64,000 nt of DNA from the sequence record OP870147.1; one strand, given 5' to 3'. Positions 50,783 through 57,610 of the stretch are shown piece by piece (position 1 is the first letter of the stretch; each line of letters opens with the position of its first letter). A model generated the notes under the pieces. It was not told where the DNA came from and did not search any database. It worked only from the letters and a program-made list of their open reading frames with translations. A program made the position numbers and the translations under genes. This DNA is from Escherichia phage vB_Eco_F31.

Positions 50783-51742
50783 TTATGATTTTAATGCATT
50801 CATTGCGTTAAAAAGTTTAGAATACTGCAACTGGAGATTCGTTACAACACTTTGAGCATCACGAAGCTTAGCTTGTGCTTTGTCAAGTTCAACAGACAGT
50901 TGGTCCATAGTGGCCTTGATTTGATTGTAATGGTAATCTTCGGCCGGAAGAAGGTCATTAGAAACATTTAGTTTTACTGCAGACAGTTTGCACACATTTG
51001 GCAAACCTTTAAACATTGATTTAGCCGAAGTAGAATAAGCACTTAGGACTTCGGCTTGTTCAATTGGGGTCCCAGTAAGCGATGCTTCAAACAATGCATT
51101 TTCCTTTTTAAGATTTTGATAGTATTCAGAGTCTTTGTGCCACCATGGCGCAGGAACCTTTTTACCAATAGATACACGAGCCTGGATAGCGATATTGCCC
51201 TTATTCTTGATAGGGTCGATAATATTAAGCTCACGAGAATAAATTGCTTTAATCTGGTGAATATTATCACCTAACACTTCCAACGCTTGGTGGAATACAC
51301 GAGCAACGTTATCATTCTTAGGTTTATACGTGAGAGTGAACTCGTTCTCACTGATAACCATGATTTCCAACTTATCGTAAGTATATTTCAAATGTTTCAT
51401 GTTAATTGCTTGAGGACGAATACGAGAAGCAATGGCCATCAGATTGTTAAGGTTATTCCGGAACTGCTTAGCGAAATATTGTCCTTCACCGCCAATACAA
51501 AAATTACGAAGTTTCTGTTTGGCCAATAAACGGCTGAACTCACCATTTTTAATGAACTCTTTAACGGGTGTGTTAGTAACGCATTCAAATTTAGTAAACT
51601 TACGAGAATTAATCCCATAATACGAACAGATTTCCTCAATCTCTTCAGGAGTCTTTACAGGCATACGGATAGGATTAGGTCCTGGAGTATATGCGTTCGA
51701 GGTAAATTCTTTGATAAGTTCTTTACGTGTAATAAAAGCCAT
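50783..51742 (-). CDS. hypothetical protein with C-terminal coiled coil
   Basis: 319 aa; preceded by an identical promoter cassette. Confidence 0.5.
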   Translation of the reverse strand: MAFITRKELIKEFTSNAYTPGPNPIRMPVKTPEEIEEICSYYGINSRKFTKFECVTNTPVKEFIKNGEFSRLLAKQKLRNFCIGGEGQYFAKQFRNNLNNLMAIASRIRPQAINMKHLKYTYDKLEIMVISENEFTLTYKPKNDNVARVFHQALEVLGDNIHQIKAIYSRELNIIDPIKNKGNIAIQARVSIGKKVPAPWWHKDSEYYQNLKKENALFEASLTGTPIEQAEVLSAYSTSAKSMFKGLPNVCKLSAVKLNVSNDLLPAEDYHYNQIKATMDQLSVELDKAQAKLRDAQSVVTNLQLQYSKLFNAMNALKS

Positions 51743-53866: not shown

Positions 53867-54868
53867 TTATTTCAGTAAAGTTACTTCAGAGATTTCTTCC
53901 CAACCATCTTTATCAGTTGAAATAAAATCTGCTACATAAAGAGCCGTACGTAATGATACATTGCGAAGACGAGATACATTAGCCTTCATCCAGGACAATG
54001 CTTTGTACGTTTCTGCATCCGTCAGGCCACGTTTCTGCATCATGTCAGTAGATAATATTACATCTTCAACTCGAACCATAATCTCTTCATTAGAGTGTAC
54101 TCCAAGGTCGAGATACACTGAACGAGATACTAAAGCTTGAAGGTGTGGAGCAAGTTTCGAACCCCGTTCTAACTCTTTATCGATATCAACGTTTGTAATG
54201 AAAACGATAGTACCTTCAAACTCAAATTCTTTATCAATACCCTTATCCTCGAGATAAGATGACGCAGTGCTCCAACAAACTTTGCGTTTATCGCCGGTAT
54301 CTAATGCTGCTTTAAGAAGGTTCAAGATGTCCATATCTGAGAATACGTCAACGTCGTCGATTAAGAGAACGCTGTCTGCGTCACGGTTGAGCCAAAGTTG
54401 TTCGTAAAGGCCAATACCAGAGATTTTACCATTAATGCTTTTGTATTTGATGAAACCATTATCATTAGCGTTATTAAGTGCTTTATCCAGAGAATACGTC
54501 TTACCAATACCGGCTGCACCTGAAATAATGAGTGAACGAATTTTGCCATCGATAATGCCATTCGTCATCATGTTCATTACTTTAAAGCGTTTGTTGATAC
54601 GAGTTTTCATATTTTCAGTGCTTTCAACAACTGCAACTGGCGATGTCTCAACTCCTTCCATTACGATGTCTGATTTGAAGACCCATACTCCACGTTCAGA
54701 GCCATCAATCATAACGAAAATTTTACCATCACCTAAGTGGGAACATTCAGGATTAAGCTTTGCCGGGAACCAGGTCTTTGTGGCAACATAAGAACCAGAG
54801 ATTTCGTTATTACGATAGATACCTTTTTTGATTTGAACGTTGAACATTTTATTCTCCAATTTACTCAT
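53867..54868 (-). CDS. P-loop ATPase (AAA-like)
   Basis: 333 aa; Walker A ISGAAGIGKTY; Walker B VLLIDDVD. Confidence 0.5.
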   Translation of the reverse strand: MSKLENKMFNVQIKKGIYRNNEISGSYVATKTWFPAKLNPECSHLGDGKIFVMIDGSERGVWVFKSDIVMEGVETSPVAVVESTENMKTRINKRFKVMNMMTNGIIDGKIRSLIISGAAGIGKTYSLDKALNNANDNGFIKYKSINGKISGIGLYEQLWLNRDADSVLLIDDVDVFSDMDILNLLKAALDTGDKRKVCWSTASSYLEDKGIDKEFEFEGTIVFITNVDIDKELERGSKLAPHLQALVSRSVYLDLGVHSNEEIMVRVEDVILSTDMMQKRGLTDAETYKALSWMKANVSRLRNVSLRTALYVADFISTDKDGWEEISEVTLLK

Positions 54869-54885
54869 TTCGTTTCGATAGGTCT

Positions 54886-54914
54886 ATAATAACATATCCT
54901 AAAAGCATGTACAC
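54886..54914 (-). promoter_or_regulatory. early promoter GTGTAC-N17-TATTAT-AGACCTATC
   Basis: Upstream of the P-loop ATPase gene. Confidence 0.5.
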
Positions 54915-54945
54915 TACTTTTTTAAAAATATTTTAACCCCCTAAA

Positions 54946-54961
54946 GGGACCCGAAGGTCCC
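54946..54961 (-). terminator. UUCG hairpin downstream of the secreted-protein gene
   Basis: GGGACC-TTCG-GGTCCC; weak U tract. Confidence 0.35.
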
Positions 54962-54966
54962 CGCAT

Positions 54967-55233
54967 TTACTTATCGCACTTAGCAACATAATTAGGCATA
55001 TCACAGAATACAGAGCGAGTAACTACTCGTCCCTTTGACCATGCTTCAGTTGCTTGTCCGGCCGTGCTATTAATATAGCTTGATTTGATATTCTCAATAC
55101 CCTGAGAATGCGATGCATTTACCGAACCGTTGGAAGGTGCAGAAGACTGGTTACCACCAGCTCCTGCACCTGTGGTAGCACCAACAGAGAATGCCATCAT
55201 TACTGCGAATAAACCAATTACTAATTTTTTCAT
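54967..55233 (-). CDS. small secreted protein
   Basis: 88 aa; signal peptide; Gly/Ser/Asn-rich. Confidence 0.45.
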   Translation of the reverse strand: MKKLVIGLFAVMMAFSVGATTGAGAGGNQSSAPSNGSVNASHSQGIENIKSSYINSTAGQATEAWSKGRVVTRSVFCDMPNYVAKCDK

Positions 55234-55264
55234 ATTTACCTCAAGTTAAGAGTTATTTATCTAC

Positions 55265-56254
55265 TTATTTATAGTAAGAATTATGATTTTCGAGATAGAC
55301 TTGCTCAAGGAAATCATCCCAGAAACTCATATCTACTTTTTGTTGCATACCGTTCTTAGCGGCTTGTTCTGATGCTTGTTCTACCTGGTCAACAATGTCT
55401 TCCAGGAATTCTTGTACAGTTTTAAACGTATGTTTACCAAGCTTAACATCGAGAATAAATGGAGCATCCTGAAGTGGGTAAACCAGGTCGCCGGTTTTGT
55501 AAATTTCCAATAATTGAAGTCCACCGCGACATGCATGACTCAATGCTTTCCAGTCAATACCTTCGTTAGCTTCTGCCTTACGAGCACGTTCGCCATAGTT
55601 CTCTTCCAGTTTAACCAGGATGGCATTGAACTCTTTATTGGTTAACGTATCTTGGAATTTACGGTCTAACAGATTATAGAATGTTTGCTTACCTGTTTTC
55701 TCGTTTTCGGTTTCAACCCACGAAGCAAATTCACCTACAGGCAGAACATTCTTCATATGTGATAAACGAATTACTGCACCATTATCAAAGTATTGTCCCC
55801 ATTCATTAGAACGTTTAAGGGCTTGACGAAGAACAGCCAGTCGAGAACCCTTGACACCGTATTTAGAAGCTTGCTTACGGACATACCCCAAATAAGATTT
55901 CATGTTAGTGGTATAGAAACGAGACCTGTTATCTTGAATATACTTCCACACGTCAGGCAAATCAGATTTAACCACTAGACTTGGTGGAGTGTGAAGCATA
56001 TCTAATGCGACAGTTTCACCATCCGCAGCTAGTTTAAAGAAATATTTGAGACTGTACAACTCATGATCCACATCGTCTTTTGTGTTCTTAGAAGATGTGT
56101 TATTCGTGTTCTTGCTCATGTGTTCTTTAACGTTACCGGTCAAGATATCACGAGCATGAGGGACATAAATTTCTTTAAAATCGACGTCAGATTCAGGAGT
56201 AGACGTTCCATAAAGGTGGCTACCAAAGTAGCCTTTCATAATTGTTTTCATCAT
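55265..56254 (-). CDS. Pol-beta superfamily nucleotidyltransferase (NTP_transf_2-like)
   Basis: 329 aa; N-terminal GSHLYGTSTPESDVDF fits GS-x9-13-[DE]h[DE]h; C-terminal helical region. Confidence 0.5.
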   Translation of the reverse strand: MMKTIMKGYFGSHLYGTSTPESDVDFKEIYVPHARDILTGNVKEHMSKNTNNTSSKNTKDDVDHELYSLKYFFKLAADGETVALDMLHTPPSLVVKSDLPDVWKYIQDNRSRFYTTNMKSYLGYVRKQASKYGVKGSRLAVLRQALKRSNEWGQYFDNGAVIRLSHMKNVLPVGEFASWVETENEKTGKQTFYNLLDRKFQDTLTNKEFNAILVKLEENYGERARKAEANEGIDWKALSHACRGGLQLLEIYKTGDLVYPLQDAPFILDVKLGKHTFKTVQEFLEDIVDQVEQASEQAAKNGMQQKVDMSFWDDFLEQVYLENHNSYYK

Positions 56255-56724
56255 TTAGCCTTATATTCAAGAGTAGGACAGATTTTTTCTTTACGAGCTT
56301 TAAGGTATTCGCCTATTAATGATTTCTTACGTTCAATAGGCTCAAGTCCATTTTTAATTCGTTCTTGGTTTTGCGCAATGAGCTCAATTTCTTTATAATA
56401 TTTTCTGTCGTTATATTTGTCTAACAACCAAGACGGACCAATTACCAACCCGGTAGCAATAAAAGCCATGACTGCTACAATTAAAATGCCTACACCAATT
56501 GAGGCCGGAACTAATGTCCATAGACTGTTAAAAACAAAGAATTTAGTTAAAATTTCCTGGCCAATGATTGTGACTGCTGCTAAAATCGCAAATCCAATAA
56601 TTGAAACAGCCAATACCGGGATTAACGTTTTCCAAAAATAAGCACACAACGTTTTCGGACGATTCCATGTACTATTGAACGCGGCATAAATTTTAAAGTG
56701 CCAAGAGTTTTCATTGATAATCAT
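56251..56724 (-). CDS. membrane protein
   Basis: 157 aa with two long TM segments. Confidence 0.45.
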   Translation of the reverse strand: MIINENSWHFKIYAAFNSTWNRPKTLCAYFWKTLIPVLAVSIIGFAILAAVTIIGQEILTKFFVFNSLWTLVPASIGVGILIVAVMAFIATGLVIGPSWLLDKYNDRKYYKEIELIAQNQERIKNGLEPIERKKSLIGEYLKARKEKICPTLEYKAK

Positions 56725-56733
56725 AATAATTCC

Positions 56734-57264
56734 TTATTTCAAAGTTGGGATAATAGAATCGAGATAAGCTTTAAGAGCAACTGTTTCATCTTTGTCTAAT
56801 GTAATGATATGTTGACGAAGGTCATCAATTTGGCGAATAACTACGACATCACCGTCTTCATAAGAAGGATTAACGCCTAGGACTGTTGTATAGTCAGGGC
56901 GGTCCTGATTTGTAATAAAAGCATTACGGCATTTAGCCCATTGAAGTTTGGCCTTTTTGGCAGTTTCAGATTCTATGAATTCTTTCACCTTAGTGACGAA
57001 TGTTTTCCAATTATTGATAGAAAGGCATTCATCTTCTGTTTCGATATTAACCCCACTATAAAGACCGTGATAAAAACGAACTTGAAGGTCTTCATCAATG
57101 TTAATTACAGATGCATGGCCGGGCGGATTGAGTTTCAAAATCTTGTCCAGTTCCATAGGAAGAATAGTAACAGCATCATCTTCTTGTGTCAGAACGTAAG
57201 CATAACCACGTTTTTCGATACATAAATCGCCAAACAACTCGGTTGTTTCAATTACAGTTTTCAT
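56734..57264 (-). CDS. hypothetical protein
   Basis: 176 aa from the ATG MKTVIETT; the ORF-track start at 57276 is a TTG. Confidence 0.45.
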   Translation of the reverse strand: MKTVIETTELFGDLCIEKRGYAYVLTQEDDAVTILPMELDKILKLNPPGHASVINIDEDLQVRFYHGLYSGVNIETEDECLSINNWKTFVTKVKEFIESETAKKAKLQWAKCRNAFITNQDRPDYTTVLGVNPSYEDGDVVVIRQIDDLRQHIITLDKDETVALKAYLDSIIPTLK

Positions 57265-57265
57265 A

Positions 57266-57445
57266 TTATTCACCAATTAAAGTTTCAACAAAATTCACCA
57301 AATCATTCAGACAAGCATCAACCTGATTTTCATAAAAGTCTTCGTTATCATTTACTGCATGATAAGCTACATCATTCAAATCTGAATCGGCTTCACGTAA
57401 GTTACGGATAAGTTCCATCAATTTATTAGCTTGTTCACGGGTCAT
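57266..57445 (-). CDS. small acidic hypothetical protein
   Basis: 59-aa ORF by careful reverse-complement translation (MTREQANKLMELIRNL...); stop adjoins the next ATG. Confidence 0.35.
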   Translation of the reverse strand: MTREQANKLMELIRNLREADSDLNDVAYHAVNDNEDFYENQVDACLNDLVNFVETLIGE

Positions 57446-57581
57446 TTTACCATACTCGTTTCAATAAGATTCACTATGCCGTTTACCATGTTATAAGTAA
57501 ACATCGGATAATTGTATTGTACTACAACATAAGCGATAAGCAAAAGTTTCATTTTGTTCTCCGTTTGTTTTGATAGGACTA

Positions 57582-57610
57582 CTATAACATAGTCCTACCA
57601 AGATGTAAAC
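57582..57610 (-). promoter_or_regulatory. early promoter GTTTAC-N17-TTATAG-AGTCCTATC
   Basis: Perfect 8-bp inverted repeat TAGGACTA/TAGTCCTA around the -10. Confidence 0.5.

Follow-up and report, generated by a model that had tools for sequence, protein, structure and literature searches.

RlaP is a family of Pol-beta nucleotidyltransferases (NTases) whose name, 'RNA-ligase-associating Pol-beta', was given by Burroughs and Aravind (2016; cited in PMC12776372 and PMC7824862) for a linkage to RNA ligase. Phage RlaP has been predicted to restore nucleotides before ligation (PMC7824862). A member of the family is encoded in Escherichia phage vB_Eco_F31, of which one stretch of 64,000 nt (record OP870147.1; hereafter the window) was analysed, the locus studied being that at positions 53867–56254. 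The NTase of this locus is read here, with a probability of roughly 0.6, as a template-independent RlaP enzyme of the T4 nrdC.11 type that acts in RNA repair. It should be pointed out that the family-level identity is already known and that candidacy for RNA repair is already discussed in the literature, in so far as Burroughs and Aravind (2016) are cited in the two papers above. The repair idea having been published, the window adds no new kind of system, and its value is that of one more orthologue.

Two RlaP enzymes have been assayed, those of Pseudomonas fluorescens (PfRlaP) and Pseudomonas aeruginosa (PaRlaP), in a bioRxiv preprint of December 2025 (Carruthers, Fatma and Huang; PMC12776372). 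Both put one or two nucleoside monophosphates (NMPs) on RNA 3′-OH ends with a preference for Mn2+, and neither uses DNA as an acceptor. The enzymes favour the 3′ end of the 5′ half in a nicked tRNA mimic, and they partly restore aminoacylation of a tRNA that is missing one anticodon-loop nucleotide. RNAs of rRNA, tRNA and fragment size are labelled with little specificity for the nucleoside triphosphate (NTP), and E. coli proteins are not substrates. RlaP is proposed by these authors as an antidote to ribotoxins that cut and then trim, e.g. RloC (PMC12776372).

In phage T4, NrdC.11 (NP_049709, 'nucleotidyltransferase'; Y05K) and NrdC.10 (NP_049708) were recognised as early as 2006 as a COG3541 NTase and an AAA ATPase, respectively (PMC1524935). 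The window has the corresponding genes in the same order and on the same strand in the nrdC–tk early region, and the encoded NTase and ATPase are each 78% identical to the T4 protein over the full length. By position and sequence, these two genes are the Mosigvirus orthologues of nrdC.11 and nrdC.10. At the DNA level the region is 98.7% identical to that of Escherichia phage vB_EcoM_NBG1 (Mosigvirus, Tevenvirinae), and a DNA search with a 2.9-kb stretch matches 767 phage records.

All genes of the locus lie on the minus strand, in what is a non-essential early region between nrdC and tk. Four open reading frames (ORFs) are found there at the positions given in an original prediction made from the sequence alone, which did not recognise nrdC.10 and nrdC.11, both long-annotated T4 genes. 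The locus differs from that of T4 in two respects: an extra 88-aa gene stands between the nrdC.11 and nrdC.10 orthologues, and a 157-aa membrane-protein gene replaces the T4 mobD homing endonuclease in its slot. Many deposited phage genomes call the nrdC.10 and nrdC.11 orthologues 'thioredoxin', an annotation error that has apparently spread from the gene names.

Family, active site and fold of the NTase

The NTase gene and the elements of its active site are located as follows.

55265..56254, minus strand: NTase gene, T4 nrdC.11 orthologue; 329-aa ORF, RlaP family, long subfamily
56177..56224, minus strand: codons for G11-S12 ... D23-V-D25-F26, the hG[GS] and DxD active-site motifs of Pol-beta NTases, from conservation among homologues
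56066..56068, minus strand: codon for D63, the probable third catalytic Asp at the start of beta-strand 62–68, from conservation, hhalign and the AlphaFold2 strand

Database entries give the protein as 328 aa, starting at the adjacent ATG at 56251. Pfam PF10127 (RlaP) matches the NTase with E=1.2e-12 and 48.5 bits against a gathering cut-off of 23, the match covering residues 7–140 only (profile positions 23–147 of 249), and PHROGs assigns it to phrog_388 'nucleotidyltransferase' (E=2e-126). The databases already contain proteins with 100% identity to the NTase, and all near-identical ones carry PF10127. Relatives are numerous: an exhaustive HMMER search finds 3228 clusters (50% identity) at E≤1e-3 and 744 at E≤1e-30. 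Searches of NCBIfam with the four proteins of the locus give sub-threshold matches only. PDB sequence searches with the NTase and with a 75-sequence profile give chance-level matches only, in a PDB copy evidently without the PfRlaP structure.

Residues 11–26 are GSHLYGTSTPESDVDF, as quoted in the original prediction. Among 75 full-length homologues of 34–53% identity, G11, S12, G16, S22, D23, D25, N57, Y132, K236, R243 and G273 are invariant, and D61, D63 and D85 are kept in at least 90%. For a profile–profile comparison, canonical RlaPs of 250–290 aa were taken from bacterial loci; a representative of these matches PF10127 end to end with E=7e-81. The hhalign alignment of NTase and canonical RlaP (probability 93.6%, residues 2–131 only) pairs G11-S12 with the GS of GSRAWGF, D23 and D25 with the aspartates of SDYDV, D63 with the Asp of 'lDi', and D85 with a conserved Glu. 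D85 was considered as the third catalytic acid and rejected; it lies in a predicted helix and pairs with the Glu of canonical RlaP. D63 is the better candidate because it starts the predicted strand 62–68, pairs with the canonical Asp and is kept in T4 NrdC.11, which has Asn at the D61 position. The catalytic triad is therefore probably D23/D25/D63, as judged from alignment and model.

The AlphaFold2 (AF2) model of the NTase has a pLDDT of 93.9 and shows an alpha/beta NTase domain at the N-terminus, a small insert of beta structure (residues 177–201) and long C-terminal helices. The prediction of a Pol-beta NTase is thus borne out by the GS/DxD motif, the above-threshold PF10127 match and the conserved acidic residues, and that of a helical region behind the motif by the helical C-terminal part of the model. 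Neither a non-catalytic fold nor a lost acidic triad was seen, G11-S12, D23, D25 and D63 being kept within a confidently modelled NTase fold.

The same analysis separates the window NTase from the assayed enzymes. [quoted passage not shown] In contrast to them it is about 70 aa longer and has the predicted beta-insert (strands 177–201) and a divergent helical C-terminus. Its C-terminal half is helical in the AF2 model, and the Pfam and hhalign alignments to canonical RlaP stop by residue ~131–140. T4 NrdC.11 falls in cluster 5 of the PF10127 sequence similarity network, and the assayed enzymes in cluster 1a (PMC12776372). By these sequence comparisons the window NTase and T4 NrdC.11 belong to a distinct 'long' RlaP subfamily of ~310–340 aa. 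Because only the N-terminal ~130 residues align with canonical RlaP, the exact substrate and nucleotide preference of the long subfamily may differ.

The nearest solved folds to the model, in a PDB copy evidently without PfRlaP, are Hailong HalB (PDB 9dbh/9dbj) and kanamycin NTase, rather than cGAS, OAS or a CD-NTase, and the comparison with cGAS-OAS-like enzymes is not upheld. With the cGAS/OAS/CD-NTase group the window NTase shares a superfamily-level GS...DxD motif alone; the bilobed fold with its characteristic C-terminal lobe and the effector partner of that group are not found in it.

RNA-repair neighbourhoods and a proposed mechanism

The gene neighbourhoods of relatives were compared in 82 viral loci with a long-type RlaP and in 80 cellular loci (33–52% identity) from Desulfobacterales, Nitrospirota, Alphaproteobacteria and some archaea (L172–L251). 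Several viral relatives at 40–46% identity are located in end-healing and ligation cassettes, and RNA-repair genes recur beside the cellular relatives.

Viral loci L166 and L167: HD phosphohydrolase and P-loop kinase, then an Rnl1-type ligase, then RlaP
Viral locus L138: Rnl1, further on a metallophosphatase and a kinase, then RlaP
Viral loci L004 and L148: RlaP near Rnl1- or Rnl2-like genes
Cellular loci: canonical RlaP directly after the long form at ~0 bp, 25/80, often together with RtcB, Hen1 or Ro60
Cellular loci: RtcB, 10/80
Cellular loci: Hen1, 4/80
Cellular loci: Ro60/TROVE, 4/80
Cellular loci: at least one RNA-repair neighbour, 34/80

These associations support a role in RNA repair. 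The phage itself would have the further enzymes: in the NBG1 genome, Rnl2-like and Rnl1-like ligases and a polynucleotide kinase/phosphatase (Pnk) are found at 110–140 kb, about 55–85 kb from the NTase gene.

A mechanism can be put forward on the basis of the assayed Pseudomonas RlaPs and the neighbourhoods of close relatives. Early in infection, the NTase would bind an NTP and two divalent cations, probably Mn2+, via D23, D25 and D63, and would add one or two NMPs to the 3′-OH of damaged RNA. It would be expected to act mainly on tRNAs cut in the anticodon loop and then trimmed by a host ribotoxin, with the 5′ half as substrate. The phage Pnk and RNA ligases would then reseal the full-length tRNA. 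The 157-aa membrane protein, encoded upstream and translationally overlapped with the NTase, may be a partner of the enzyme, and the 88-aa secreted protein and the NrdC.10-type AAA+ ATPase would be neighbours by synteny that stand outside the NTase machine.

Several observations weigh against RNA repair as the function. HalB, the nearest solved fold, synthesises DNA instead of extending RNA. Residues ~132–329 of the NTase align neither to the Pfam model nor to canonical RlaP, and thus substrate recognition could differ. The preprint itself labels T4 NrdC.11 an 'RlaP of unknown function' (PMC12776372), and no long-subfamily RlaP has been assayed. The long form is usually accompanied by canonical RlaP in bacteria, and canonical RlaP is absent from the viral loci (0/82), so that phage loci carry the long form only; since the two are paired in bacteria while phages lack the canonical form, they are probably not interchangeable or redundant, as judged from gene content. 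In addition, the 64-kb window contains no RNA ligase, kinase or second RlaP, i.e. the NTase gene is not linked to such genes here, nor is it in an rtcB operon as is its Pseudomonas counterpart. Finally, the T4 fragment nrdC.11–mobD.3 is dispensable in genome-reduced T4 (PMC9825161); any role is therefore conditional, and no laboratory phenotype supports any role.

The neighbouring genes and their transcription

The other features of the locus and its surroundings are given in the order in which they are read on the minus strand.

57581..57609, minus strand: T4-early-type promoter-like site, GTTTACA-N17-TATAGT with TG; consensus match only
56251..56724, minus strand: ORF for a 157-aa membrane protein of the uncharacterised phage family phrog_944; possible NTase partner
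54967..55233, minus strand: ORF for an 88-aa signal-peptide protein, phrog_2243, between the nrdC.11 and nrdC.10 orthologues
54935..54951, minus strand: stem-loop GGGGACC-UUCG-GGUCCC just after the 88-aa gene, terminator- or stabiliser-like
54886..54913, minus strand: promoter-like site before the ATPase gene, TGTACA-N16-TATTAT with upstream TG; from a consensus scan and sequence reading only
53867..54847, minus strand: AAA+ ATPase gene, T4 nrdC.10 orthologue; 326 aa, phrog_1250 (a 333-aa ORF extends to 54868)
54497..54520, minus strand: Walker A motif GAAGIGKT of the ATPase, with G-x-G-K-T invariant in 36 homologues

The TGA stop codon of the 157-aa gene overlaps the ATG of the NTase gene (ATGA). 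The protein has one long hydrophobic block, at about residues 25–102, with at least two transmembrane (TM) segments; the block has two to four such segments across the family. A membrane protein was thus rightly predicted, whereas the count of two TM segments is not fixed, as a block of this extent fits two or more. S7, H9, C27, Y29, K147 and C149 are invariant in the family and flank the TM block (alignment A4). Pfam and PDB searches with the protein and with the family profile found no relatives and gave compositional TM noise only.

Homologues of the membrane protein accompany the NTase in 37 of the 82 viral loci, including distant and rearranged ones: the homologue is downstream of RlaP in L003, on both sides of it in L136, and inside the Rnl1–kinase–RlaP cassette in L138. 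The upstream gene of L003, also of 157 aa, was at one point taken for the homologue; this was wrong, the homologue being the downstream gene. A partnership of membrane protein and NTase is possible on this gene arrangement.

The N-terminus of the 88-aa protein, MKKLVIGLFAVMMAFSVGA, is signal-peptide-like, in keeping with the small secreted protein that had been predicted. It is followed by a Gly/Ser/Asn-rich middle and two C-terminal cysteines, and there is a weak, sub-threshold NCBIfam match to the BLB8/JUQZ-1 family (model 'JUQZ_fam_ocin', E=0.008). Only two or three loci have the gene in this place (2 of the 82 viral loci centred on the NTase), and T4 does not have it. From this distribution, the 88-aa gene is a sporadic insert outside any conserved unit.

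The start of the ATPase is almost certainly the second ATG, at 54847, which gives a protein of 326 aa. The assignment rests on a GGAG 8 nt upstream of this ATG, on the length of nearly all full-length homologues (321–340 aa) and on the annotation in NBG1; the first ATG is ~18 nt from the −10 element of the promoter-like site. The 333-aa Walker A/B ATPase of the original prediction is therefore right as to motifs and probably too long by the extra codons. Walker A and Walker B (LLIDDVD) are invariant in the 36 homologues, and T218-N219 (sensor-1) and R188, R242, R295 and R300 are invariant or nearly so. The AF2 model (pLDDT 89.5) shows a 64-residue N-terminal beta domain, an AAA+ core and a lid. 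Foldseek gives 142 PDB matches at E≤1e-3, of which the top 50 are all AAA+, and the matches at ~1e-5 are spread over the NtrC1, RuvB, RFC, ORC/Cdc6, dynein and NSF clades with no clear winner. PDB sequence searches with the ATPase and its profile give chance-level matches only. On motifs and model together, the product of 53867–54847 is an AAA+ ATPase.

The occurrence of the ATPase was followed in 80 viral loci with a homologue, in which the NTase was sought within 10 kb. In 39 of the 80, nearly all of them from enterobacterial and Acinetobacter T4-like phages, an NTase gene of the same orientation precedes the ATPase by 0.1–2.3 kb. In the remaining 41, from Aeromonas phages, KVP40 and marine T4-likes, no NTase was seen over that 10-kb distance; in Aeromonas phage 31, for example, the ATPase is found between motA and asiA. 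Homologues in marine T4-likes (L059–L088) have ~33% identity. Of these loci with the ATPase alone, 39 of the more remote were examined (Aeromonas, KVP40 and mostly marine T4-like contigs), and 29 have a UvsW-like SF2 helicase gene directly downstream of the ATPase, in the same orientation and separated from it by a median of 136 bp. Such an arrangement may point to a part for the widely conserved ATPase in DNA replication or recombination. Viewed from the NTase, 56 of the 82 viral loci lack the ATPase within 8 kb, and where both are present their spacing varies, with unrelated inserts.

The UUCG hairpin and then the promoter-like site, both in the 98-bp gap before the ATPase gene, suggest by their order a transcription-unit boundary. 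The hairpin, with a minimum free energy of −13 kcal/mol, is not exceptional relative to shuffled sequences (z = −1.1). The site at 57609–57581 is upstream of a run of genes of which those for the membrane protein and the NTase are the last. Placement of the genes behind early promoters, as predicted, is plausible from these two matches; these are consensus matches only, and the 23 promoter-like sites of this AT-rich region are no excess over the 18.2 ± 4.5 expected from shuffled sequences. Since ATPase and NTase are each widely found alone, and since the hairpin and the promoter-like site lie between them, their adjacency is explained as lineage synteny, and the ATPase is probably functionally independent of the NTase and not a dedicated partner.

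A scan of the whole window (1–64000) found no Rfam family at gathering threshold and no tRNA gene. Two neighbours, 56734–57276 and 50783–51742 (both minus strand), match families lately added to Pfam for functionally uncharacterised T4 proteins, these being PF24449 and PF24448 (y05I/MobD.1-like 'putative transcription factor' domains) and DUF7235.

Alternative functions and significance

The original prediction left open whether the locus is a signalling, RNA-tailing or defence/anti-defence module. RNA-tailing in an anti-defence setting fits best, given the RlaP family, the assayed RlaPs and the RNA-repair cassettes of relatives, and signalling is not supported. A four-gene module is also not sustained. 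That NTase, AAA+ ATPase and small proteins form one signalling or defence/anti-defence unit might be supposed from the 39 of 80 ATPase-centred loci with the NTase upstream, and from the T4 genome, where nrdC.11 adjoins nrdC.10. However, the absence of one or the other gene from so many loci (41/80 and 56/82), the helicase that follows the distant ATPases, the variable spacing with unrelated inserts, the hairpin and promoter-like site that part the two genes, and the sporadic nature of the 88-aa gene all speak against a unit, and PADLOC finds nothing meaningful for any of the four proteins; such a module is thus improbable. A narrower two-gene device of the Hailong type, or one directed against Hailong, is more doubtful still and has very little likelihood. 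Hailong is a two-gene operon of a TM protein and an NTase (PMC13434031), and the overlap of the TM-protein gene with the NTase start and the joint presence of the pair in 37 of 82 loci invite the comparison. The NTase would then produce signals in the form of short DNA or oligonucleotides, in the way that HalB produces oligo-dA. The small membrane protein would be gated by these signals, or they would hold the host HalA channel shut once phage exonucleases destroy the host signal. But the 157-aa protein resembles neither HalA nor any chain in the PDB, and no pairing with a HalA-type channel is seen. HalB primes on a conserved C-terminal tyrosine, whereas the C-terminal YY of the window NTase is not conserved among homologues. 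Moreover, the neighbours of relatives are RNA-repair genes and not channels, and the assayed RlaPs do not use DNA acceptors (PMC12776372).

The acceptor could also be something other than RNA, either a protein, as for an MNT/AMPylase-like antitoxin or a host-takeover modifier, or a small molecule, as for the aminoglycoside NTases. The best Foldseek PDB matches include ANT(4′)/kanamycin NTase, LinB and AadA, the MNT antitoxin complex is also listed, and a faint NCBIfam match to MntA extends over the GS...D motif (E=0.076, far below cut-off). What is shared with ANT(4′) and the MNT group is a minimal Pol-beta core with a helical domain behind it (Foldseek probability 1.0, E about 2e-3), and the fold matches are weak (E ≥ 2e-3, TM-score only about 0.3, 8% identity), reflecting that minimal core; substrates in that group are aminoglycosides or proteins. 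With an above-threshold assignment to RlaP, no HEPN or toxin partner nearby in the ORF list and Pfam scan, E. coli proteins that are not substrates of the assayed RlaPs (PMC12776372), and neighbourhoods that favour RNA repair, a non-RNA acceptor is hardly to be expected. Less remote, and nevertheless unlikely, is an RNA 3′-end NTase that acts elsewhere than on cut anticodon loops, in restoration of the tRNA 3′-CCA or acceptor end or in tailing of host or phage transcripts with consequences for their stability. The wide range of RNAs labelled by the assayed RlaPs with little NTP specificity (PMC12776372) is consistent with this, as are the different C-terminal domain of the long subfamily and the absence of linkage between the phage NTase gene and ligase or kinase genes. 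On the other side, the assayed enzymes add no more than 1–2 nt and, in a nicked tRNA mimic, act preferentially on the 5′ half at its 3′ end (PMC12776372), and relatives are linked to ligases and end-healing enzymes rather than to CCA-adding or decay enzymes.

There is some room for an activity peculiar to the long form, because it pairs at 0 bp with canonical RlaP in bacteria, because phages have the long form only, and because HalB is its nearest solved fold. The long form may not be simply equivalent to canonical RlaP. Perhaps, with its divergent C-terminal domain, it joins the membrane protein with its Cys/His motif in a new kind of nucleotide-adding device at the membrane, a long shot at present. 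It could be a counter-defence enzyme for a particular host ribotoxin, or a HalB-like oligonucleotide synthase that disturbs NTase-controlled membrane effectors.

To the RNA-repair reading of nrdC.11 as published, the present analysis adds three points: a separation of the long subfamily from the enzymes that have been assayed, the company that this subfamily keeps with a small membrane protein, and a probable independence of the NrdC.10 ATPase gene. T4 Pnk and Rnl1 are the founding example of RNA repair as counter-defence, and they are not known to counter anticodon nucleases which, like RloC, take out a nucleotide as well. Were the NrdC.11-type RlaP to supply the missing nucleotide, that gap would be closed, and a function would be assigned to a gene present in more than 1,500 sequenced phages.

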